From assembly GCA_041394245.1 (NCBI GenBank), contig JAWKIR010000002.1, forward strand, positions 2,858,970 through 2,922,969: a stretch of DNA of 64,000 nt, read 5' to 3'. This document shows positions 1-11,588 of this stretch, piece after piece (the first letter of the stretch is position 1; every line of letters begins with the position of its first letter). The notes under the pieces were generated by a model, which had not been told where the DNA came from, did not search any database, and saw only the letters and a program-made list of their open reading frames with translations. The translations under genes were made by a program, and so were the position numbers. The stretch comes from Acidimicrobiales bacterium. GTDB lineage: Bacteria; Actinomycetota; Acidimicrobiia; Acidimicrobiales; Aldehydirespiratoraceae.

Positions 1-1318
1 CGAGGGCGTCGTCGTGGTCGCGGTCGACGCCGATCTCGTCGCACAGACGACGGATCGTGGCGGGGCCGACACCCTCCAGGGATGCGAGGACGCGATGCCA
101 GGCCAGCTGGTCGGCCGGATTGTCGAGGATGCGCAGGAGCGCCAGCAGATCTTTGACGTGGGCCGACTCGAGGTACTTCAGTCCGCCGTATTTCACATAG
201 GGGATGTCGCGTCGGGTGAGTTCGAGTTCGAGGCCGTCGGCGTGGTGGCCGGCCCGGAAGAGCACGGCCTGTTGGCGGAGATCGATCCCCCGCTCGCGGG
301 CGTCGAGCACGGCGGTCGCGACGGCGGCGCTCTGGGCACCCTCGTCGTGATGGGTCTTCAGCTTGGGGGTGAGGCCGTGCGGACGGGACGACCAGAGCTG
401 CTTCGCGTAGTGCTCGTCGCTCTGGGACAGCACGGCGTTGGCGACGGCCAGGATCGGCATGGTCGATCGATAGTTCTGTTCGAGGGTCACCCGCGTGGCG
501 CCGGGAAACTGCTCGGCGAAGTTCCACATGTTGGCCACGGTCGCCGCCCGGAACCCGTAGATGGCCTGGGCATCGTCGCCGACGGCGCACAGGTCGGTGT
601 CGGGGCGGCACATCCCCCGGACGATGTCGGCCTGGATCGGGTTGGTGTCCTGGTACTCGTCGATGAGGACGTGGTCGAAGAGATCCCGCATCGCGTCGCC
701 GACTCCGCTGACCGTGAGCCCACGCCAGAAGAGCAGCAGGTCGTCGTAGTCGAGCACCTGATGGCTGCGCTTGCGAGCGGTGTAGGCGGTGAAGATCGTC
801 CGCAGGTCGTCGGCGTGATCGGCGCACCAGGGGTAGTCGCGCTCGAGCACCTCGCCGAGCTTCGCCTGGCTGCTGACCATGCGCGAGTAGACGCCGGCGA
901 TGGTCTCCTTGCGGGGGAACCGCTTGCCCCGCTCCCCGAATCCCTCGTCGGTACGCACGATGCCCATCAGCTCGGTGGCGTCGGACTGGTCGAGCACGGT
1001 GAATCCGGGTGACAGCCCGGCGCTCTGTCCGAAGTTGCGCAGGAGTCGGTTGGCCGTGGAGTGGAAGGTGCCACCCCAGACCCGGGAGGCGGCCCGGTCG
1101 GTCGACACCGCCGCCACCCGGGCAAGCATCTCGCTCGCGGCACGTCGGGTGAACGTGAGCAGGAGGATCCGGCTCGGGTCGGCGCCGTCGTCGATGATCC
1201 GACAGACCCGGGCTGCGAGGGTCTTGGTCTTGCCGGTACCCGCGCCGGCGACGATGAGCAAGGGGGAGCCGGTGTGGTCGACGGCGGCCTGCTGCTGTGG
1301 GTTCAGCGAATCGAACAT
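1..1318 (-). CDS. UvrD/PcrA-family ATP-dependent DNA helicase, N-terminal part (3' end runs off the window)
   Basis: Absent from the ORF track because no stop lies in the window. Reverse translation from ATG at 1318 gives MFDSLNPQQQAAVDHTGSPLLIVAGAGTGKTKTLAARV (Walker A), then LIDEYQDTN. Plus-strand ORFs 14..1012 and 900..1928 are its shadows. Confidence 0.85.
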   Translation of the reverse strand, partial: MFDSLNPQQQAAVDHTGSPLLIVAGAGTGKTKTLAARVCRIIDDGADPSRILLLTFTRRAASEMLARVAAVSTDRAASRVWGGTFHSTANRLLRNFGQSAGLSPGFTVLDQSDATELMGIVRTDEGFGERGKRFPRKETIAGVYSRMVSSQAKLGEVLERDYPWCADHADDLRTIFTAYTARKRSHQVLDYDDLLLFWRGLTVSGVGDAMRDLFDHVLIDEYQDTNPIQADIVRGMCRPDTDLCAVGDDAQAIYGFRAATVANMWNFAEQFPGATRVTLEQNYRSTMPILAVANAVLSQSDEHYAKQLWSSRPHGLTPKLKTHHDEGAQSAAVATAVLDARERGIDLRQQAVLFRAGHHADGLELELTRRDIPYVKYGGLKYLESAHVKDLLALLRILDNPADQLAWHRVLASLEGVGPATIRRLCDEIGVDRDHDDAL

Positions 1319-1340
1319 GCGTTCGATCGTAGTCGAGACC

Positions 1341-2453
1341 TCAGCGGATCGAGGGAAGGGAGACGAACGGGGGCTCGGGTTTCGAGAGCGCGTATCCCTG
1401 GAAGAGCTCACAGCCGAGGTTCACGAGATGGTCGATCTCCCGGTGCGACTCGACACCTTCCGCCAACGTGATCGAGCCGAGGTCGCGACACACGACGATC
1501 ATCGACTGGACCAGCGTGCTCTGGGTCGATCGCACATGGATGTCGCGCACGAGTTCCATGTCGAACTTCACGATGTCCGGTTGCATGGTCGCGAGGCTGG
1601 TGAGTCCGGCGTAGCCGGCGCCGAGGTCGTCCAGCGCCAGCCGGTAGCCGAGGCGGCGAAGTGCGTCGAGCCGCGTCTCGACGTCGGAGATCATCGAGAG
1701 GGGTGCCCGTTCGGTGATCTCGAGCACGATGCGGTCGCGGTGAGGCGCCAGTTCGTCGCGGCCCTCGATGAGCATCGGGTCCTCGAGCGACTCGGGCAGC
1801 AGGTTCACGAAGACGGCGACGTCGTCGGGTGCCGACGGCATGTCGGTGGCGACCATGTGGCGGACCAGCCGGTCGAGATCGAATCGGCGATCCAGCTGCG
1901 TGGCGGCATGGATCAGGTCGGGGGGTGACGCGATCACCGGATGATCCACGCGGATGAGCGCCTCGTAGGCGAAGACGCGACCCGCGGGAAGCGCAACGAT
2001 CGGCTGGTACACCATGCGACAAAAGCCGAGTGCTTCCTCGAACGCCTCCTCCAGGCCGGGATCGACGTCGACCGAGCGAGAGGCGCGCCCTGCGGCCAGG
2101 GCGTCGTTGATGGCTTCGACGAGCACGTCGGACGGGCACGGCTTGACGAGGAACCGGTGGATCGCCGCGTCGTTGATCGCCGAGATCGTGGCTTCGAGCG
2201 ATGCCTCACCGGTCAGAATGATCCGCTGAACGTCGGGATGTTCCTCGCGGACGCGGGCCAGGAACTCCGTGCCCGTCATCTGCGGCATGCGCTCATCCGA
2301 CACCACGACGTCCACGTCGCCCGCAGCGAGTGCGGCGAGTCCGTCTCGTCCGGAGTTGGCCGTGCGGACTTCGAACGGCATCTTGCGGAGTGCGACCCGC
2401 ACGGCGTCGGTGACACCGACCTCGTCGTCGACGAAGAGGACGACCGGGCTCAC
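1341..2453 (-). CDS. Response regulator, REC + EAL (c-di-GMP phosphodiesterase type)
   Basis: 370 aa. N-terminal receiver (VLFVDDE...SDERMP...LVKP). C-terminal EAL-type motifs (YQPIV, EALIR, EITE, DDLGAGY, QGY). Confidence 0.9.
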   Translation of the reverse strand: MSPVVLFVDDEVGVTDAVRVALRKMPFEVRTANSGRDGLAALAAGDVDVVVSDERMPQMTGTEFLARVREEHPDVQRIILTGEASLEATISAINDAAIHRFLVKPCPSDVLVEAINDALAAGRASRSVDVDPGLEEAFEEALGFCRMVYQPIVALPAGRVFAYEALIRVDHPVIASPPDLIHAATQLDRRFDLDRLVRHMVATDMPSAPDDVAVFVNLLPESLEDPMLIEGRDELAPHRDRIVLEITERAPLSMISDVETRLDALRRLGYRLALDDLGAGYAGLTSLATMQPDIVKFDMELVRDIHVRSTQSTLVQSMIVVCRDLGSITLAEGVESHREIDHLVNLGCELFQGYALSKPEPPFVSLPSIR

Positions 2454-3592
2454 CGGGCCAGCTCCCGTGCCATCGACAGGGGTGCGAGCACCCGGATCGG
2501 TTCGACGATGCCCGGACCGGCCCCGAAGGTGCGGATGCGGCCGACGAGCACGGTGGTCAAGGTGACGCCTTCTGCCGCCAGTTTCGATCCGGTCGTGGTC
2601 ATCACGTCCTCCGTGAGCTTCATTCCCGCCGCGAGCTGGTCGGCGGTCGTGTCGATCTCGACCATCGCGTTCGACGACGGCTTCACCTTGCCGAGGGCGG
2701 TGAGCAGGAACTCGGGTGGTGGATGGCTCTCGGCGGCCAGGAGCGCCAGCGCGGCGACGCGGCTCTCGCCGGAGCTCACCAGGTCGTCGAAGCGGTACGC
2801 GAGTCGGAGCAGTTCGGTCTTCAACGCCGTGTCACCGCACTCGGCGAGCGTCTCGGCGGTCATCGCCGGCCGGGTGTCCTGCTGATGCGAGACGATCTCG
2901 GCGACGGTCTCGAGGCGTGGGATCCGTGTGAGCAAGTCGCCGGCCACCGTCGAGTGCAGGGCCACCGACCCGGGCAGCAGATCACCGTGGTCGTCGCCGA
3001 CCACGACACAGCCGATCTGGGAGAGGCGCGCGGCGAGGAGGAGGTCCCAGTCCACGTCGCGCTCGAGCTGACGGCACAGACCGGTCACGATGTCGACGAT
3101 GCGCATCGTCTTGCTGTAGGCGCCGACGCTGACCAAGCCGAGCACGTCGGTGAGCATGCCGACGGCGCCACTGAGCGTCTGGTCGAGCAGGTCACGTTCG
3201 ACGGTGCGAAGTCGCGACTGTTCGATCGCCTCGTCGATGGTCTCCGTGAGGAGTTCCGGAGGGCACGGCTTGGTCAGGAAACGGAAGACCCTCGCGTCGT
3301 TGACCGCAGCGATCGCCGCGTCGAGATCGGCTTGTCCGGTGAGGAGGATCCGGGGCAGCTCCGGGTGGCGTTCGCGCACCGCGGTCAGGAACTGCGCGCC
3401 GGACATCTGCGGCATGCGCATGTCCGAGACGACGGCGTCGACCCCGGCCTCGCGCGTCTCGGCGAGATACGAGAGCCCCTCGGCACCGCTCGACGCAACC
3501 GCGACGTTGTAGCGCTTGCGCAGGCCGAGACGCATGCCTTCGAGGAGCTCTGATTCGTCGTCGACGAAGAGAACGGTGGGCTTGTCGGTCAC
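2450..3592 (-). CDS. Response regulator, REC + degenerate HD-GYP-like output domain
   Basis: Real start is GTG at 3592 ([13 protein letters not shown]), a GTGA overlap with the upstream stop. The C-terminal domain aligns in pattern to HD-GYP, but HD is LSQIG, HHE is SHQQD, and there is no GYP. The track ORF 2450..5014 is an over-extension. Confidence 0.75.
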   Translation of the reverse strand: MTDKPTVLFVDDESELLEGMRLGLRKRYNVAVASSGAEGLSYLAETREAGVDAVVSDMRMPQMSGAQFLTAVRERHPELPRILLTGQADLDAAIAAVNDARVFRFLTKPCPPELLTETIDEAIEQSRLRTVERDLLDQTLSGAVGMLTDVLGLVSVGAYSKTMRIVDIVTGLCRQLERDVDWDLLLAARLSQIGCVVVGDDHGDLLPGSVALHSTVAGDLLTRIPRLETVAEIVSHQQDTRPAMTAETLAECGDTALKTELLRLAYRFDDLVSSGESRVAALALLAAESHPPPEFLLTALGKVKPSSNAMVEIDTTADQLAAGMKLTEDVMTTTGSKLAAEGVTLTTVLVGRIRTFGAGPGIVEPIRVLAPLSMARELAR

Positions 3593-4815
3593 GGTCTTGC
3601 CTCGACGAGCCCCGCCTCCCAGCGGTCGAGGGCGGCGGTCATGGTGTCGTCGAGTCGGGTGACGAGCGGCCGACCGAGTGAGTCCCCCAGACGTCGCTGC
3701 ACGATCAGGGCGGCGGCTTGTACCGCGGTGGTGCAGGTGAACGGCGTGTCGATGTCGGGGTCGGGAAGGTCGCTGGATGCGGCCACCGCGAGCACGAGTT
3801 CCGACGGAAGGCCCCAGATGGACAGCAGGTGTCCGGCCAGGTCGGTGTGGCGAACCCCGAACAGCATCCGCTCGGCGGTCGGCAGGTCGATGTCCTCGGC
3901 TTCGGCATGGTCGTAGGCCGCACGGAGGCGACCGGGCGTGGTCGAGGCTTCGAGCAGGATGCCGACGTGCGCGAGCAGACCGCCGACGGCGGCGATCGTG
4001 GCGTGCTCGGGACGGGCCAACGCCGAGGCGACGTGTCCGACCGAGGAGCCGTAGGTCGCGAGGGCATCGGGCGGGAATCCCCGGATGTCGGTGTCGGTGT
4101 CGAGGGCGCGCATCACCTCGACGGTCAGGGCGAGCTGGGCGACGGCGACGATGCCGATCCGGCCGACGGCATCGCGCACGGTCGTCGACGGCGTCGCGCC
4201 GGCGAACGCCGAGTTCGCGAGCTGGAGCAGCTTCGCGGTGATCGCCGGATCGGTTTCGGCAGCGGCCGCCACCGCGTCGAACGACACGTTGGGGTCGGCC
4301 AGAAGGGTCTGGATCCGCAGGTAGTGCTCGGGCAGGCTGGGCACGTTGTCGGCTCCGGCGATGACGCCGGCGACCTGATCGTCGAGGTGGAGCGAGCGAT
4401 ACCGGACCGCGTCGGCCAGGGCGGCGAGCAACTGCTCCCGCGGGCATGGCTTCGTCAACCAGCGGTGGGCCTCGAGCATCGACCTCATGACGAGTTGGGG
4501 CTCGGCCTCGCCGGAGAGGACGAAGCGCACGACATGGGGGTGTTCGCGTCGAATCGTGACCAGCAGGTCGGCGCCGTTGGCTCCGGGCATACGCATGTCC
4601 GTCACGACCACGTCGACGTGGTGTGCGTCGAGGATCTCGAGGGCCTCCTCGACACTCCCCGCCCAGAGGAAGTGATAGCTCTTGCGGGCCTGGCGCAGGG
4701 CGAGGCGAATGCCGTCGAGCACCCCGGGTTCGTCGTCGACGAACAGCACGGTCGGGCGAGGCTCGGCGCCGCCGGCCGGGGCACCGGTCGTGTCGTGGGT
4801 CGCGATCGTGGTCAT
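3589..4815 (-). CDS. Response regulator, REC + HDOD domain
   Basis: Start ATG at 4815 (MTTIATHD...), an ATGA overlap with the kinase stop. Receiver (VLFVDDEP...TDMRMP...LTKP), then an HDOD-like stretch ([19 protein letters not shown]...[16 protein letters not shown]). Confidence 0.8.
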
Positions 4816-6128
4816 GTCGGCGGCTCCGACGGCAACCAGATGCGGAAGGTGGTGCCGACCCCTTCCTCGACATCCACACCGATCTTGCCGTTGTGGCCGT
4901 CCACGACGACAGAGCGCGAGATCGCCAGTCCCTGGCCGGTCCCCCTGCCGGGTTCCTTGGTCGTGAAGAAGGGATCGAAGATCCGGTCGCGGATGGCTGC
5001 GGGGATCCCGCCACCAGTGTCGGCGATCGTCAGACAGACACCGCCGCCCTCCTCGACACACCGGATCGTGATGGTTCCCCGGTCCGGGGTCCCCTCGACC
5101 CGATCGGCGATGGCATGTGCGGCGTTCACCACGATGTTCAGCAGCACCTGCGACAGGTCACCCCGCTTGCACACGACCTGCGGGATCTCCGCCGGTACGA
5201 AGTCGACGTCGGCGATGTACTTGTACTCGTTGCGGGCGACGATGAGCGTCGTGTCGATCATCTCGTTGAGATCCTCGGGAGCGTGCTGCTCACTGCCGGG
5301 ATGGGAGAACTGCTTCATCGCCTTGACGATGGTCGACACCCGTTCGACGCCCTCGAGGGTGCGGCGTACGGCTGCGGGCCCCTCGACGGCGATGAACTCC
5401 AGGTCGGCCTCCTCTTCGGCCTCGTCGACAGCTGCGATCGCACTGTTGATCGCACTGTTGGTCGCGGCGTCGGCGCTGATCATCGTGCGGAGCGCACCGT
5501 GGGCCTCGGCGACTCGCAGGAGGTCGTCGATGACATCGCCCAGGAAGTGGACACTGTCACCGATGTACTGGATCGGCGTGTTGATCTCGTGGGCGACGCC
5601 GGCGGCGAGCTGACCGACCGACTCGAGCTTCTGGGAATGGCGGAGTTCGAGTTCGAGCTGTCGCCGCTCGCTGATGTCGGTCGCGACGCAGACGGCGCCG
5701 GTGGTCTGCCCTTCGTCGTCGACGAGGGCCGACGTCGCGACGAGGACCGGAAGGCTGCCGTCGGCCGTCGCCAGGGATGCCTCGCCGGACCAGACGAGGT
5801 CGTCATCGGAGACCACCTCGCCCGTCCGGCTGATGAGGGTCCAGAGCGACTCGCCGAGCAGTTCCGAGACGTCGGTGCCCGTGAGCCCGGCCGTCGTGCC
5901 CTGGGCCGACACGATCCGCGCGTCGGCATCGGTCACGATGACCGCCGAGTCCATACTCCGCAGGATGCTCTCGAGGAAGCGGCTCTTCGCGCTGATCTCC
6001 TCCTTCGCGAGATACAGCGACCGGGTGTTGTCCTCGATCATCCGCTCGAGGATCGAGATCTTCTCGCGGGCTCGCTCGAGTCGTCCCTCCAGCCGTTCGT
6101 GGGTGTCAGGCATCGACGGGAATGCCAT
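4812..6128 (-). CDS. Cytoplasmic sensor histidine kinase (coiled coil + PAS + HisKA + HATPase)
   Basis: 438 aa with no TM segment. PAS-like [15 protein letters not shown]-box [17 protein letters not shown]1 and G2 boxes (NAAHAI, DTGGGIP, GTGQGL). Confidence 0.9.
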
Positions 6129-6687
6129 CCGCCGGAGTCTGCGTCGTCCGTCCGTCGGCCAGGACGATCCGGAAGGTCGCGTTGGTTCCCTCCGAGCTCA
6201 CCATCTCGTGGGTGAACTCGGTCTCGAACCAGTCGCCGGCGCCGTCCAGCAGACCGTGGACCAACCCGAACAGCCCGAACGGCGACGCGTAGTGCATGAG
6301 GAGCTCACCGTCGCCGATCCGCTCGACGGCGAATCGGGCCGGGGACGCGTCCTGATCAAGCTTGCGGACCTCGGTGTGGACCACCGATTCCAGACCCAGC
6401 AGGAACGCCTCCAGGTCGTCGAAGTGCGCCATGAGGGAGGGAACGGCGCCCGCCAGGGTCGGGAAGGCGTGGCGGCCGCAGGCCTGGAGGGCCTCGTCGA
6501 CGGTCACTCCGAGCTTGGCCGCCGCGGTGACGACGAGCGCCACCAGGTCGCCGGCCGGATAGGTCCCCGGTCCGACGAAGGGCTCGGTGGTCTCGATCGT
6601 CGTGTCGGCCACGATGTCCTCGAGCACGTCCTCGCCGAAGGTCTCCACGACGAAGTTCTCGAACACGTTGAAAATGACGCCCTTCAC
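6106..6687 (-). CDS. H-NOX (heme-NO/O2-binding, HNOB) sensor protein
   Basis: GTG at 6687 is preceded by GAGGAG 6 nt upstream. VKGVIFNVFENFVVETFGEDV resembles H-NOX N-termini. His104, Pro116 and Tyr133-x-Ser135 sit at canonical positions. It overlaps the kinase start. Confidence 0.8.
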   Translation of the reverse strand: MKGVIFNVFENFVVETFGEDVLEDIVADTTIETTEPFVGPGTYPAGDLVALVVTAAAKLGVTVDEALQACGRHAFPTLAGAVPSLMAHFDDLEAFLLGLESVVHTEVRKLDQDASPARFAVERIGDGELLMHYASPFGLFGLVHGLLDGAGDWFETEFTHEMVSSEGTNATFRIVLADGRTTQTPADGIPVDA

Positions 6688-6817
6688 GGAGGACTCCTCT
6701 GCCGATCGATGTCGGCCGCAGCGTCGGTTGCCCCCTGCGCCACATGAGAGACTGGGTCGATGCTGTCGATCGCTGCGCTCCGATCCGCCCCGTCGTCGGG
6801 CGAGGGGTAGGTCGCTC

Positions 6818-9493
6818 GTGCCCGAGATTCCGGCGGGGATCGTGACGTTCCTGTTCACCGATGTCGAGGGGTCGACGCGGCTGTGGGCGGCCGACGCCGA
6901 GGCCACCGCGCGGAGCTTCGAACGCCACGACGAGATCATCCGCGACGCGATCGAGCGCTGCGGCGGCTACGTCTTCGGTTGGGCCGGTGACCACTTCCGC
7001 GGCGCTTTCGGTGATCCCGAGGCGGCGGTCGCCGCAGCGGTGGCTGCGCAGGCGGCGCTGGCGTCGTGTGACTGGCACGGCGACCCGGCACTGCGGGTGC
7101 GGATGGGTCTGCATCGCGGCCGCTCGACCCAGCGGGCCGGCGACTACTTCGGGCCGGTGCCCAACACGGCGGCGCGGTTGGAGGCACTCGCCGCCGGCGG
7201 GCAGATCCTGCTGTCGGCCGCCGTCGCCGACCTGGTCGACGTCGAGATGCTGGCGCTCGGCCAGCACCGTTTGCGTGACGTCCCCGAGCCCGTCGACATC
7301 TTCCAAGTCGGCGTCGAGTCGTTCCGGCCGCTCCAGGTCATCGACCCGTCGCTGTCGACCCTCCCGCTCCCCGGGTCACCGCTGATCGGACGACAACGCG
7401 AAGTCGGGCGGATCCGCCAGCTGCTCGAGACCTCGGCGATGGTGACGCTCACCGGATCCGGTGGCTGTGGGAAGACCCGGCTGGCCGTGGAGGTCGCCTA
7501 CCAGGAACTGCCGAGCCGATCCGACGGCTGCTACTTCGTCGACCTGTCGAGCGTGTCGGACGGGTCCGAGCTGCCGGCCGCCCTCGCGATCGCGGTGCGC
7601 CTCGAGTTCGGCGGCTCGGACGAAGGAGCGCTCGATCAGGTGATCGCGCACCTGGAGCGACGCGATGCCCTCCTCGTTCTCGACAATTGCGAGCACATCG
7701 TCGACGACTGCGCAGTGTTCGCCGAGCGCCTCCTGGCCCGCAACAGCGCGACCGCGGTGCTCGCGACCACCCGGGAGCGTCTCGACGTGGCGGGAGAGGA
7801 TGTGGTCGCCGTCGGTTCGCTGAGCATCGAGGGCGACGCTCCGGCCGTGCAACTCTTCGTCGAGCGGGCAAGGGCGGCGAGCCCGACCTTCACCTGCGGT
7901 GATGAGCCCGACGATCCTGTGCGGGCGACCGTGGGCGAGATCTGTCGACAGCTCGACGGCATGCCACTCGCCATCGAACTCGCCGCCGCCCGAGTGTCGG
8001 TGCTGACGCCCGCCCAGCTGCTCGATCGTATGTCCGACCGATTCCGTCTCCTGTCCGGCGGGCGCGGTCGGCACAAGCGGCGGACACTCCAGGCGACGCT
8101 CGACTGGTCCTACGACCTGCTCGACGAGGACGAGCAGCAGTTCTTCCGGCGTTGCGGGGTCTTCGTCGGGTCCTTCGACCTTCCCGCCGCGGTCGCCGTT
8201 TCGGGCTTCGACGACTATGACGCCATCGACTTGCTCGGCTCTCTCGTCGCCAAGTCGCTCCTGGCGATCGACGACTCGCCCGGCAATCCGACCACGCGGT
8301 ACCGGATGCTCGAGACCATCCGCATCTATGCCGGTGACCTGCTCGCACGGTCCGACGATGTGCTCGCGGCCCGCGAAGCCCACCTGCGCTGGTTCCGTTC
8401 CCGAGCGGTCACGCAGGATTTCGTCGAGGCGGCCGACCTGAACCGGGCGCGCGGGCTCAGGGCCGACTGGCCCAATCTCGCGAGTGCCCTCGAGTGGGCG
8501 CTGGTGCGTGGCACCGATCCGGAGACGGGCGCCACCGGGAGCGAGGTCGCCGCCCACCTCGCGTTCGGTTGTCAGGGCCTCTGGGAGGCGCAGGTGCCGG
8601 CGATCGAGGGACGTCGCTGGGTCGAGCAGATCGCCGAGGACCTCGAGGCCGGGGAGTGCCGTGACTGGATGCGATACATCAGCGTCGTGCTCTCCATGCA
8701 GCTCGACGACTTCGCCGTGGTCCACCGGCAACTCGAGGAACTGATCGCGGCCGAGGGCACGGTGCCCGAGGTGTTGGCACAGGCGGCGGGGCTGATAGCG
8801 TTCCTGTGCGGTCGTCAGGACCGGGATCGGGCCCGAGCGCTCGCCGAGCGAGCCGAGCAGGTGGTGACCGAGCACCGTTTGGCCGGGGAGCATCTCACGC
8901 CCGGTATATGGGCCAGCGGGTGCCTGGCGCTCTACGAGAACCGCGCCGACGTGTCGTTGCCCGAGTTCGCCAGGGCTTCTGCACTGTTGGAGGCCACGGG
9001 GCGTCACACCAACCATCGGGTGATGGCCGGGCTCGCGCTGGCATCGGCCCACATCCTCATCGGCGATCCGGCCCGGGCGCTCGACATCGTCGAGTCGGGA
9101 GAATGGGCGTCGTCGGTGTGGGATTCGTCGCCGACCGTGCGGGCGCTTGCGCTCGTCGACCTCGGACGGACCCCCGAGGCCGCCGAGCTGGTGATCGACT
9201 TCGGCTACGCGGCGCTACGAGGTCGGCTCAGCCGCATGGCCAACGACGCGCTGGTCGGGTTGGCCGCACTGGCGATCAAGCGCGGCGAGGAGGCACATGC
9301 CTGGGTCCTGCTCCAACAGGCCGCGTCGCCGAAGACCCCCTTCACCATCGCGCTGGCGGAGGGACTGGCCGATCGGCTCGGCCACGGCGAGGACCTGCGA
9401 GCCATCCATCGCGACCGTCGGCGGCCGCTGACGGAGCTCGACGCGTCCGAGCATCTCCGGGCCGAGCTCGACCGGATTCGGCTCGTTCGCTGA
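6818..9493 (+). CDS. Class III adenylate/guanylate cyclase fused to a STAND/AAA ATPase and TPR-like repeats
   Basis: GTG at 6818 (VPEIPAGIVTFLFTDVEGSTRLW). Cyclase motifs GDHFRGAF and PNTAARL. P-loop GSGGCGKTRLA. Long helical-repeat C-terminus. No HTH seen. Confidence 0.85.
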   Translation: MPEIPAGIVTFLFTDVEGSTRLWAADAEATARSFERHDEIIRDAIERCGGYVFGWAGDHFRGAFGDPEAAVAAAVAAQAALASCDWHGDPALRVRMGLHRGRSTQRAGDYFGPVPNTAARLEALAAGGQILLSAAVADLVDVEMLALGQHRLRDVPEPVDIFQVGVESFRPLQVIDPSLSTLPLPGSPLIGRQREVGRIRQLLETSAMVTLTGSGGCGKTRLAVEVAYQELPSRSDGCYFVDLSSVSDGSELPAALAIAVRLEFGGSDEGALDQVIAHLERRDALLVLDNCEHIVDDCAVFAERLLARNSATAVLATTRERLDVAGEDVVAVGSLSIEGDAPAVQLFVERARAASPTFTCGDEPDDPVRATVGEICRQLDGMPLAIELAAARVSVLTPAQLLDRMSDRFRLLSGGRGRHKRRTLQATLDWSYDLLDEDEQQFFRRCGVFVGSFDLPAAVAVSGFDDYDAIDLLGSLVAKSLLAIDDSPGNPTTRYRMLETIRIYAGDLLARSDDVLAAREAHLRWFRSRAVTQDFVEAADLNRARGLRADWPNLASALEWALVRGTDPETGATGSEVAAHLAFGCQGLWEAQVPAIEGRRWVEQIAEDLEAGECRDWMRYISVVLSMQLDDFAVVHRQLEELIAAEGTVPEVLAQAAGLIAFLCGRQDRDRARALAERAEQVVTEHRLAGEHLTPGIWASGCLALYENRADVSLPEFARASALLEATGRHTNHRVMAGLALASAHILIGDPARALDIVESGEWASSVWDSSPTVRALALVDLGRTPEAAELVIDFGYAALRGRLSRMANDALVGLAALAIKRGEEAHAWVLLQQAASPKTPFTIALAEGLADRLGHGEDLRAIHRDRRRPLTELDASEHLRAELDRIRLVR

Positions 9494-9523: not shown

Positions 9524-9553
9524 TTGACAGAGAACATCGAAAACGCATGAAAT
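9524..9553 (+). promoter_or_regulatory. Putative promoter of the toxin operon (TTGACA -35, TGAAAT -10-like), possibly giving a leaderless mRNA
   Basis: TTGACA at 9524-9529, an 18-nt spacer, then TGAAAT at 9548-9553 in a local AT-rich patch. ATG at 9561 lies 7 nt after the -10. AATGCATT palindrome at 9551-9558. Confidence 0.4.
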
Positions 9554-11588
9554 GCATTCAATGTCTCCACAACTCACGCCGCGACCCGCTGATCTCTCGA
9601 CGACCGGATCGTCCGACACGCTCGTTCTCGACGTGCCGGCCGCCCGCGAACTGGTCGGGGCGCTGACGAACGCCGCCGAGGCGCTGGCCGTCGATCACCT
9701 TGCGCTGCGGTCGATGCTCGACGAAGCCACCGCCATCCTCCGAGCCGACCACACGGGCGCACTGGTGCCGCTCACGGCCGCGCGTCAGGCATGCGCCGGA
9801 CTCGCTGCGGATCTGAGGTTCCGTGTCGATCTGGTCGAGCGGACCACACACTCGCTCGACCGGATCGACGAATTGTCGCGGGGCGACTCGGCCTGGGGAA
9901 CCCGCGAGCGCCGACGCCTGCTGCTCGGTCTGGTCGGCGGCGATGTCGACCACGCCCGGCGGGTCGAACGGGCGATGGCGGCAGGGCACGATGCCGCCGC
10001 GGCATTCCGGATCGTCGATGCCGAGCTGCGCCTCGAGTATCGGGTCGGTGCGCTCATGGAGGCGTTTTCGATCGACGAGGCCGCCGCCCTCGCCATGGTC
10101 GAACGGGTCGACGCGGCACTGATCGATCTCCTCGACCGGGGCTACGCCACCGACGACGCAGTGGCCGCGCTCGCGATCGTCGAGAACTTCGGGCTCGACC
10201 TCGCCACCGCACTCGACCATGCCGCTGCCGTCGGGATCGACCTGCACGCCGCACTCGGACAGATGCTCACGGCCCGCGCGCTCGGGGTGACCCTGGCCGA
10301 GTATGTCGCGCTCACCGGTCTGGAGGAGCACTTCGCGGTGTTCGACAACGCCACCGGAGGCTCCCGCGACCAGCGGGTGTCGGCCAAGGACCTCGAGTTC
10401 GTCGTCGCCCATCCGTGGCGGTTCACTCCGAGCCAGGTACTCGCCGCCCAGGCGCTGCTCGACCAGCCGCTCCTGCGCAATCGGCTCGACACCGCCAACC
10501 ACAACGCCGACCTCTTCTCCGGCACCGCCTTCGGGTCGATGGAGCCCGGCGACGGCCTGATCGCCGACGTCGACCTGCACGCCTTCCTGCTGAAGGCCCA
10601 GCTCCACACGATCCTCGGCGACTACGCCGACCGGATCGACGTCGCGAACGATCCGTCGGGCATCGTCGACGGGTTCCGTTCCGAGAACGACTTCCGCGCG
10701 TTCATCGCCGACAACCCCGACCTCCCCGAGTCGGTCCTGGCCGCGGCGACGGTGGCACTCGAGTCCGGATGGTTCGACCAGACCTGGTGGGACGAGCACA
10801 AGGACGAGCTGGCGATGGGGGCGGCGCTGCTCGCCGCAGGGCTGGTCGTCGTCGCGACCGGTGGTGCCGCCTCGATGATCCTCGTGGTCGGCGCCGGCGC
10901 GCTCGCCGGTGGAGCGACGACGGTCGCCATCAACCTCGCCACCGGCGCACCGATACTCGACGACGCCCTCATGAACTCGGTCAGGGGTGGCTTCATCGGC
11001 GCCGGCGTGCATGGTGTCGTCACGGGCGCAGCGGCCTACGGGACGGCGTCGACGGGGGTCGCTCGGGTCGCCGCCGTCGCCGGCGCGACATCGGGTGCCG
11101 CCGACGTCGTGGCCGCCGGAGGCGTCGACCTGCTCATCGACGAGCAGTATGAGGCGGCCGTCCACGGCATGGCCAACGACGTCGGCAATGTCGCCGGGGC
11201 GATCGACCTCGGCCTCAGTGCCGGCGAGTGGGCGAGCCGTACGCCGGTCACCTTCGATTCGGTCGAGGAGCAACTCGCCGCGCTGTCCGACCGGATCAGC
11301 CGACAGCGCCAGCTCCGCCACATCAAGGATTCACCGCTGCACCGGTCGGGGGGCTACTTCGTCGATCCGGCCGATGCCCAGCGGGTGCTCGACGCCGTCC
11401 ACGATGGGTCGGCGGAGGTCTTCGGGATCACTCGCGGTCAGGATCTCCTGGTGCGCTACGACGAGGTCATCGGGATCCATGTCAACCGCAACGGCGGAGT
11501 CGTGCCGGGCATCGAGACCACGACGTTCACCGTCAAGGGAAGCGCGAAGCCGAGTGTGGTGCCGGTGCGTCCGGGGAGGACGGAGTGA
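9552..11588 (+). CDS. Polymorphic toxin: helical N-terminal region, Gly-rich hydrophobic region, C-terminal Ntox50-like toxin domain
   Basis: 678 aa. Gly/Ala-rich TM-like stretch at ~10805-11140. The C-terminus RQLRHIKDSPLH...DAQRVL...VRYDEVIGIHV...TTTFTVKGSAKPSVVPVRP matches the recalled pattern of polymorphic toxin type 50 domains. Alternative start at 9561. Confidence 0.7.
   Translation: MHSMSPQLTPRPADLSTTGSSDTLVLDVPAARELVGALTNAAEALAVDHLALRSMLDEATAILRADHTGALVPLTAARQACAGLAADLRFRVDLVERTTHSLDRIDELSRGDSAWGTRERRRLLLGLVGGDVDHARRVERAMAAGHDAAAAFRIVDAELRLEYRVGALMEAFSIDEAAALAMVERVDAALIDLLDRGYATDDAVAALAIVENFGLDLATALDHAAAVGIDLHAALGQMLTARALGVTLAEYVALTGLEEHFAVFDNATGGSRDQRVSAKDLEFVVAHPWRFTPSQVLAAQALLDQPLLRNRLDTANHNADLFSGTAFGSMEPGDGLIADVDLHAFLLKAQLHTILGDYADRIDVANDPSGIVDGFRSENDFRAFIADNPDLPESVLAAATVALESGWFDQTWWDEHKDELAMGAALLAAGLVVVATGGAASMILVVGAGALAGGATTVAINLATGAPILDDALMNSVRGGFIGAGVHGVVTGAAAYGTASTGVARVAAVAGATSGAADVVAAGGVDLLIDEQYEAAVHGMANDVGNVAGAIDLGLSAGEWASRTPVTFDSVEEQLAALSDRISRQRQLRHIKDSPLHRSGGYFVDPADAQRVLDAVHDGSAEVFGITRGQDLLVRYDEVIGIHVNRNGGVVPGIETTTFTVKGSAKPSVVPVRPGRTE

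Follow-up and report, generated by a model that had tools for sequence, protein, structure and literature searches.

A candidate H-NOX to cyclic di-GMP signalling operon in Acidimicrobiales, built around a conserved H-NOX, kinase and REC-HDOD core

Do five adjoining genes of an uncultured Acidimicrobiales bacterium encode a whole signalling pathway, from an H-NOX sensor protein to the breakdown of cyclic di-GMP (c-di-GMP), and if they do, is the sensor a canonical one? The question is raised by a 64-kb stretch of contig JAWKIR010000002.1 (the window, that is, the whole stretch of DNA analysed), in which consecutive genes encode an H-NOX protein, a histidine kinase and three response regulators, namely REC-HDOD, REC with a degenerate HD-GYP domain (gene 4), and REC-EAL. 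Our analysis favours, with a probability of roughly 65%, a branched two-component pathway encoded by one five-gene operon, in which a kinase controlled by H-NOX would act on three receivers and, through them, on c-di-GMP breakdown. The operon is one member of a multi-phylum cassette with a fixed H-NOX/kinase/REC-HDOD core and modular c-di-GMP-related genes. H-NOX signalling has been characterised almost wholly in Proteobacteria, and the window contains a compact cassette from a major, poorly cultured actinobacterial class.

The source genome is a metagenome-assembled genome (MAG) with about 68% G+C in the window, for which reason the reading frames were set by start-codon context and homology. 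Its initial annotation as actinobacterium-like is borne out by the H-NOX protein, which is 100% identical to the NCBI entry 'MAG: heme NO-binding domain-containing protein [Acidimicrobiales bacterium]'; the product of gene 4 is identical to a 'response regulator' from the same MAG, and the annotation of the five genes already present at NCBI is generic. The genes had been described as five consecutive minus-strand genes with overlapping or 4-nt junctions, and the junctions indeed overlap by 8, 4 (ATGA), 4 (GTGA) and 4 (GTGA) nt (Table 1). An alternative ATG of the kinase gene at 6128 would extend the first overlap to 23 nt; since the same 8-nt overlap of the H-NOX and kinase genes is found in two relatives (loci L001 and L004), the start at 6113 is favoured. 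Judging by their order and coupling, the five genes should be co-transcribed as one operon.

Pfam profiles confirm the domains assigned at the outset to all five proteins, in the case of gene 4 through a marginal match to HD_5. The first gene product matches the HNOB profile (PF07700) with 101.5 bits against a cut-off of 25.5 (E-value 5.9e-29, profile positions 1-162 of 163), and thus passes the profile test of an H-NOX protein. By sequence, its nearest solved structures are the H-NOX proteins of Kordia algicida (6bde), Shewanella woodyi (6ocv) and S. oneidensis (4u99/2kii), with E-values from 4e-19 to 1e-16. Structure prediction by AlphaFold2 (AF2) gave a model with a predicted local distance difference test score (pLDDT) of 83.4, for which the top Foldseek matches are all H-NOX, the best being 4u99 of S. 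oneidensis with a template modelling (TM) score of 0.83. The model thus has the family fold, in which a helical N-terminal subdomain is joined to an alpha/beta C-terminal one.

The second gene product was initially described as a soluble PAS histidine kinase, and this description stands: Pfam recovers PAS, PAS_4 and PAS_9 together with HATPase_c (E-value 2.2e-24), and the maximum Kyte-Doolittle value over 19 residues is 1.35, so that the protein has no hydrophobic or transmembrane segment and is taken to be soluble. The H-box is identical or nearly so across 23 orthologous kinases. Each window receiver has the VDDE acidic pocket, the D-x-R-M-P phospho-acceptor motif and the K-P-C motif, and most orthologues of each receiver class share them. 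The three receivers are mutually 43-55% identical, which is consistent with one shared kinase. In one relative, the Acidimicrobiales MAG BC2.78 (L022:8001-9977), H-NOX and kinase are encoded in one 659-aa open reading frame (ORF), whose fusion junction holds a 14-nt tandem duplication (ATCACCTTCCCGAC x2) and in which the proximal His of H-NOX is replaced by Asp. This ORF could be a natural fusion, or else a frameshift or assembly artefact; such a fusion, with the same proviso, is consistent with a direct interaction of H-NOX with the kinase.

Among the output regulators, REC-EAL is predicted to be an active c-di-GMP phosphodiesterase. It matches Response_reg and EAL (169.4 bits) and, aligned to BlrP1 (3gfx), keeps each catalytic motif (EALIR, N, EITE, DD, K, EGVE and Q), which in the window protein read EALIR, NLLP, EITE, DDLGAGY, KFD, EGVE and FQG; its score against the PvrR-family model is 96 bits, with a cut-off of 580. 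The REC-HDOD protein is recognised by HDOD (PF08668) with 117.7 bits against a cut-off of 22.9 and by Response_reg with 73.3 bits, and its phospho-acceptor motif is VVVTDMRMP. Its HDOD domain is devoid of the HD metal-binding dyad, retention of which varies within the family: LLAHVG replaces LLHDIG, and SS replaces HH. All Acidimicrobiia orthologues have lost both the dyad and the HH pair, as has a Planctomycetota MAG (L026), whereas LHDIG is kept in four other non-actinobacterial loci (L024, L025, L027 and L028), with HH also kept in L024 and L028 (the HH region lies outside the L025 and L027 sequences). In the actinobacterial loci, this loss of HDOD motifs parallels the divergence of the H-NOX pocket.

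Gene 4 matches Response_reg and HD_5, the latter with 25.4 bits for the whole protein (below the cut-off of 27.2) and 28.6 bits for the isolated domain (above it). LSQIGC replaces LHDIGK and the protein has no GYP motif; the 120 listed homologues of gene 4, gammaproteobacterial, Gemmatimonadota and Acidobacteriota proteins among them, all share LSQ[IL]G. Against the NCBIfam model of NosR-family REC c-di-GMP phosphodiesterases it scores 164.8 bits, below the cut-off. Sequence and profile searches of PDB, and a Foldseek search with the AF2 model (pLDDT 85), returned matches to receiver domains only, and hence the HD-GYP assignment, marginal by Pfam score, derives from HD_5, from HD_5 annotations across the family and from inspection of the motifs. 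The C-terminal part of the protein (residues about 305-380) is a conserved beta-rich extension of ~70 aa, with homologues in several phyla and the motif L..GM.L..D.....G..L...G..LT...I.R...F.....G..EP..V; the AF2 pLDDT is about 84-92 over most of this region, and the extension has no match in Pfam.

To place the operon among its relatives, we compared 23 distinct loci left after de-duplication, 17 of them from Acidimicrobiia (the window counted) and six from other lineages. Scanning GTDB with one genome for each species gave 16 loci, all of them Acidimicrobiia MAGs, one labelled Candidatus Microthrix. Exact-sequence look-ups of the window H-NOX and of the identical protein P0001 gave no record, and look-ups of single homologues supplied further contexts; the relatives are throughout MAGs or metagenome contigs. 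The six non-actinobacterial contexts were picked from the hits closest to the query and describe this H-NOX subfamily, not H-NOX overall. The H-NOX and kinase genes are paired in 23/23 loci, always accompanied by REC-HDOD, and the order of the three is the same in all 17 Acidimicrobiia. Besides the window, 16 species-level genomes of Acidimicrobiia show the arrangement, which therefore did not come about by chance.

Downstream of REC-HDOD the content varies. Both REC-degenerate HD-GYP and, after it, REC-EAL are present in five Acidimicrobiia loci (the window, L007, L013, L019 and L020); REC-EAL alone follows in three (L001, L004 and L008), and REC-degenerate HD-GYP alone in seven (L010, L015-L018, L021 and L022), in which the sequence available contains no EAL gene; the remaining two of the 17 (L012 and L014) are counted for the core alone. 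The six non-actinobacterial loci, all with a canonical Y-x-S-x-R H-NOX, carry the H-NOX, kinase and REC-HDOD genes as well. In the Planctomycetota MAG L026 all five genes follow one another as in the window, and their junctions overlap; L024 is of the four-gene EAL form and L023 and L028 are of the HD_5 form, in L025 REC-GAF takes the place of the last gene, and in L027, from Latescibacterota, a FapA gene lies between the kinase and REC-HDOD. Two suggestions of the initial annotation do not survive this comparison. The HDOD regulator, then called extra, is the only response regulator present in 23/23 loci, the EAL and HD-GYP-like genes being the variable ones; and the cassette is not special to a high-GC Gram-positive-type context, as the same five genes occur in a Planctomycetota MAG and the core in five other non-actinobacterial loci. 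An Acidimicrobiaceae MAG (L020:14005-14463, minus strand) has in addition a second H-NOX-like ORF, ~2 kb downstream of its five-gene operon and on the opposite strand.

The mechanism that we propose from these data follows the characterised H-NOX systems. The stand-alone H-NOX protein would bind the soluble PAS kinase encoded by the adjacent gene and, depending on the ligation of the sensor, set its rate of autophosphorylation; nitric oxide (NO) or carbon monoxide (CO), held by a haem within an apolar pocket, would be the likeliest ligand. We infer that the kinase phosphorylates all three paralogous receiver proteins. The kinase HnoK of S. oneidensis and V. cholerae has two such targets: the REC-EAL protein HnoB, whose c-di-GMP hydrolysis is activated by phosphorylation, and HnoD, an HD-GYP protein without catalytic activity, which inhibits HnoB unless phosphorylated (PMC8846402, PMC8738867). 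By the same logic, the phosphodiesterase activity of REC-EAL is expected to rise upon phosphorylation, like that of HnoB, and the degenerate HD-GYP protein would be a non-catalytic modulator restraining the phosphodiesterase until it is itself phosphorylated, like HnoD. REC-HDOD would be a non-catalytic output and the fixed evolutionary partner of the H-NOX/kinase pair; because it is invariant across loci, it probably serves as the primary output or as an adaptor. Every H-NOX-associated kinase characterised so far is inhibited by the NO-bound form of its H-NOX (PMC4436077), and by analogy, ligand-bound H-NOX of the window would inhibit the kinase, lowering phosphodiesterase activity and raising c-di-GMP.

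The evidence that weighs against this pathway concerns both its output and its sensor. On the output side, the EAL gene is missing from the operon in 7/17 Acidimicrobiia loci, so that control of c-di-GMP hydrolysis is not a universal output of the module, and no diguanylate cyclase is encoded within the 64-kb window. It is conceivable, if rather doubtful, that the main output is something other than c-di-GMP turnover: REC-HDOD would drive another process by protein-protein interaction, possible examples being the motility and gene expression reported for GsmR of Xanthomonas, with the EAL and HD-GYP-like proteins as accessories in some lineages. The presence of REC-HDOD in every locus, as against the patchy EAL, speaks for this explanation, as do REC-GAF in place of EAL in L025 and FapA between the kinase and REC-HDOD in L027. 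The HDOD regulators characterised so far are not phosphodiesterases, and their effects are on genes of motility and attachment (PMC4114195, PMC6543031). At the window locus, however, the REC-EAL gene is intact and linked to its neighbours by translational coupling, and the c-di-GMP binding proposed for HDOD (PMC6543031) would keep the pathway inside c-di-GMP signalling in any case. Moreover, at this locus an HDOD-driven output is compatible with the branched pathway favoured here.

On the sensor side, the H-NOX protein is merely 24-29% identical to characterised H-NOX proteins, and two positions at the haem site have changed. The residue survey covered 120 homologues, 84 of which form an actinobacterial clade (at least 44% identity) and 36 of which are more distant. 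The Y-x-S-x-R motif reads Y133-A-S135-P-F137 in the window, with Phe137 in place of Arg; this position is F, L, Y, H or M in 84/84 clade members and Arg in 36/36 of the distant homologues. The conserved haem-contacting Pro (P115 of the Thermoanaerobacter protein, Tt) is replaced by Ala117, with a Pro one position before it (S-P-A-R-F). Ala is found here, inside the conserved S-P-A-R-F, in 72/84 members of the clade, and Pro in every non-actinobacterial hit and reference sequence of the comparison. A wider set of 138 full-length representatives at 50% identity, nearest to the query out of a library of 1.8 billion proteins, includes 124 with Arg and 134 with Pro; those that differ are mainly from the actinobacterial clade. 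Finally, the proximal His itself is replaced by Asp in three of the homologues, P0083, P0084 and P0089, the first two of them clade members, and separately in the L022 fused protein; some H-NOX members have thus probably abandoned haem ligation.

The Y-x-S-x-R motif and the axial His are the accepted haem-binding signature, and the anchoring role of Tyr and Arg is documented in soluble guanylate cyclase (sGC), where the Y135A/R139A double mutant is haem-free (PMC3157391). Given the clade-wide loss of Arg and the frequent loss of Pro, binding of haem and NO by the window protein is not to be assumed, and the canonical haem sensor taken for granted in the initial annotation is not supported. The haem affinity or geometry of the clade proteins may differ from that of known H-NOX, or haem may be unbound. 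Nevertheless, the proximal haem-ligating His (Tt H102, sGC H105) corresponds to His104 of the window protein, Tyr133 and Ser135 are retained as well, and the clade has this His in 98%, Tyr in 100% and Ser in 99% of its members, in view of which haem binding by the actinobacterial clade is plausible. Tentatively, the Acidimicrobiia H-NOX proteins could be a subclass of their own, either holding the cofactor with no help from Arg and Pro contacts or being haem-free; the evolutionarily fixed output of the H-NOX/kinase module would in that case be REC-HDOD and not a c-di-GMP enzyme.

Another explanation, which we consider unlikely, is that the protein keeps the H-NOX fold and the kinase-regulating surface and is no haem or NO sensor: it would respond to another signal or serve as a constitutive co-factor, and the PAS domain of the kinase would be the true sensor. 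The losses of Arg and Pro and the clade members without the proximal His are in line with this possibility, as is the conservation of PAS in every associated kinase; a large H-NOX group in which most members have no proximal His is also described in a 2022 review (PMC8738867). Yet without haem such retention of His, Tyr and Ser in the clade would be unexpected, and the pocket positions are still hydrophobic. Beside the former Pro site the clade conserves an Arg (Arg118) that might take over at the haem propionates, and the non-actinobacterial relatives with the same operon carry the canonical Y-x-S-x-R motif.

The distal pocket of the window protein is apolar, with F9, A76 and L142 at the positions of Tt W9, N74 and Y140, and thus resembles that of NO/CO-type H-NOX; it fits the NO-selective subclass, which does not bind O2. 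A distal Tyr is required for stable O2 binding in the H-NOX family. An O2 sensor of the Thermoanaerobacter type is therefore most improbable for the window protein, notwithstanding the fold in common with the Tt protein (TM about 0.8): the Tt distal hydrogen-bond network is absent, Leu occupies the position of Tyr140 in 110/120 homologues, and we rejected this candidate for want of the distal Tyr. Least probable of all is a haem-independent thiol/zinc redox sensor, like haem-free V. cholerae H-NOX in vitro, a mechanism known in the family (PMC7108781, PMC8738867), since the window protein has a single, non-conserved Cys and the clade a mean of 0.5 Cys per protein versus 3.3 in the non-actinobacterial hits, which makes a three-Cys site impossible and led us to reject it.

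Table 1. Positions of the operon genes and of neighbouring features in the window
Feature	Position	Strand	Remarks
H-NOX (HNOB) sensor	6106-6687	minus	193 aa; GTG start after GAGGAG
Soluble histidine kinase: N-terminal coiled coil, PAS, H-box, HATPase_c	4812-6113	minus	433 aa; ATG start
REC-HDOD response regulator	3589-4815	minus	408 aa; ATG start
REC + degenerate HD-GYP response regulator (HnoD-like)	2450-3592	minus	380 aa; GTG start
C-terminal extension of gene 4	2450-2680	minus	
REC-EAL response regulator (HnoB-like)	1341-2453	minus	370 aa; GTG start
Divergent intergenic region, H-NOX start to cyclase/STAND-NTPase gene	6688-6817		130 bp; presumed operon promoter region
UvrD/REP helicase gene	1-1318	minus	ATG at 1318; continues beyond window edge
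Class III cyclase and NB-ARC/STAND NTPase gene	6818-9493	plus	891 aa
ORF without Pfam match	9552-11588	plus	678 aa

Around the operon, the flanking genes vary between loci. The initial annotation placed a UvrD-like helicase 22 nt downstream, and both the spacing from the EAL stop and the identity of the gene (UvrD/REP, PF00580, 216 bits) are correct; the adjacency itself is not conserved, the relatives being flanked by other genes, and we rejected a functional tie of the operon to the helicase on this ground. Read-through into the helicase gene is possible, as there is no terminator-like site between the EAL stop and this gene. In positions 1-8000 of the window, a promoter scan found no promoter-like site and no sigma-70-like consensus, and a terminator scan found two terminator-like matches, no better than chance and both within genes; the promoter and the transcript end of the operon are thus presumed ones. 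Scans of the window with Rfam and for tRNA genes gave no matches. The divergent gene that starts 130 bp from the H-NOX start encodes a class III adenylate/guanylate cyclase domain and an NB-ARC/STAND NTPase, and is a second nucleotide-signalling gene beside the operon. Farther along the same strand lies an ORF with a coding-type G+C content at third codon positions and without any Pfam match at E-value 0.001 or better.

As for novelty, H-NOX homologues in Actinobacteria, including Acidimicrobiaceae, had already been reported as uncharacterised in the similarity-network survey of the 2022 review (PMC8738867), and the actinobacterial setting as such, which the initial annotation singled out, is therefore not new. 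In its actinobacterial passage, the same review emphasises the conservation of the proximal His and does not mention the change in the Arg/Pro motif. In our literature search combining H-NOX with the names of Acidimicrobiia, none of the ten top-ranked results contained the term H-NOX, and in the literature searched there was no mention of H-NOX and HDOD together. The logic of the pathway is an expected one; the HDOD link and the sensor clade without Arg and Pro are the parts that specialists would not have predicted.

The locus matters in several respects. Because the predicted partner genes stand side by side, phosphotransfer profiling of orphan regulators would not be needed to find the partners. 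The invariant H-NOX, kinase and REC-HDOD core ties a sensor of known type to the HDOD domain, and the clade-wide loss of Arg together with the loss of Pro is a natural experiment on the haem-binding requirements of the H-NOX fold, a fold in common with the drug target sGC. Should the distinct subclass with an HDOD output be real, an HDOD regulator would for the first time have a defined input signal and kinase, and the operon would offer a natural test of the H-NOX residues that gas sensing really requires. The general picture of NO and c-di-GMP signalling is unchanged, and the value of the locus is incremental unless the sensor proves non-canonical.

Several known systems resemble parts of the operon. 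Its REC-HDOD architecture is that of GsmR from Xanthomonas campestris and DVU0330 from Desulfovibrio, and GsmR likewise has an HDOD domain without the catalytic His (PMC4114195); unlike the window protein, these regulators have no reported link to H-NOX, and no upstream kinase or signal like those of the window is known for GsmR. In the NosP/NahK/NarR (NosR-family) systems, an NO sensor controls a kinase, which in turn passes phosphate to a REC c-di-GMP enzyme, and the NCBIfam NosR-family model is the best match of all three window receivers; with scores of 95-165 bits, far under the 400-bit cut-off, we rejected them as members of that family, and the sensor of NosP systems is of the FIST type (NosP), not H-NOX. 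Closer in layout is Pseudoalteromonas atlantica, where H-NOX (PATL1532), kinase (PATL1533) and a c-di-GMP-related regulator (PATL1534) are encoded by consecutive genes, as listed in Table 1 of the review (PMC8738867); by the review's account the system is proteobacterial, with a canonical H-NOX and one regulator, not three.

The nearest counterpart is the Hno network of S. oneidensis and V. cholerae, to which the operon was likened from the start for having the same part types, and this likeness is upheld at the level of domains and residues for H-NOX, kinase, REC-EAL and REC-degenerate HD-GYP. Both have a stand-alone H-NOX gene beside a soluble kinase gene, and a kinase with several receiver targets (predicted ones in the window) including REC-EAL and REC-degenerate HD-GYP. 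The REC-EAL protein of the window is HnoB-like in its domain and catalytic motifs, and gene 4, with HD changed to SQ, is comparable to HnoD of S. oneidensis, with HD changed to SE and HHE to QLE, as judged from the published description (bioRxiv 10.1101/2021.11.05.467447). The S. oneidensis and window H-NOX proteins have a common fold (TM 0.83) and only 24-26% identity. The networks differ in layout, as the initial annotation noted: all genes of the window are in one operon, whereas in the model organisms the targets lie elsewhere, at SO_2541 versus SO2144/SO2145 and at VC1086 versus VCA0720/VCA0719, according to the locus tags given in the review and the preprint for these systems (PMC8738867; bioRxiv 10.1101/2021.11.05.467447). 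Also unlike the Hno network, Pfam shows no DNA-binding domain in any product of the operon, so that a REC-HTH protein of the HnoC type is absent from these five genes, and the window H-NOX has neither the Arg of Y-x-S-x-R nor the conserved Pro nor the Zn/Cys site. In turn, the operon of the window adds to the parts of the Hno network a REC-HDOD regulator, which is invariant in its relatives.

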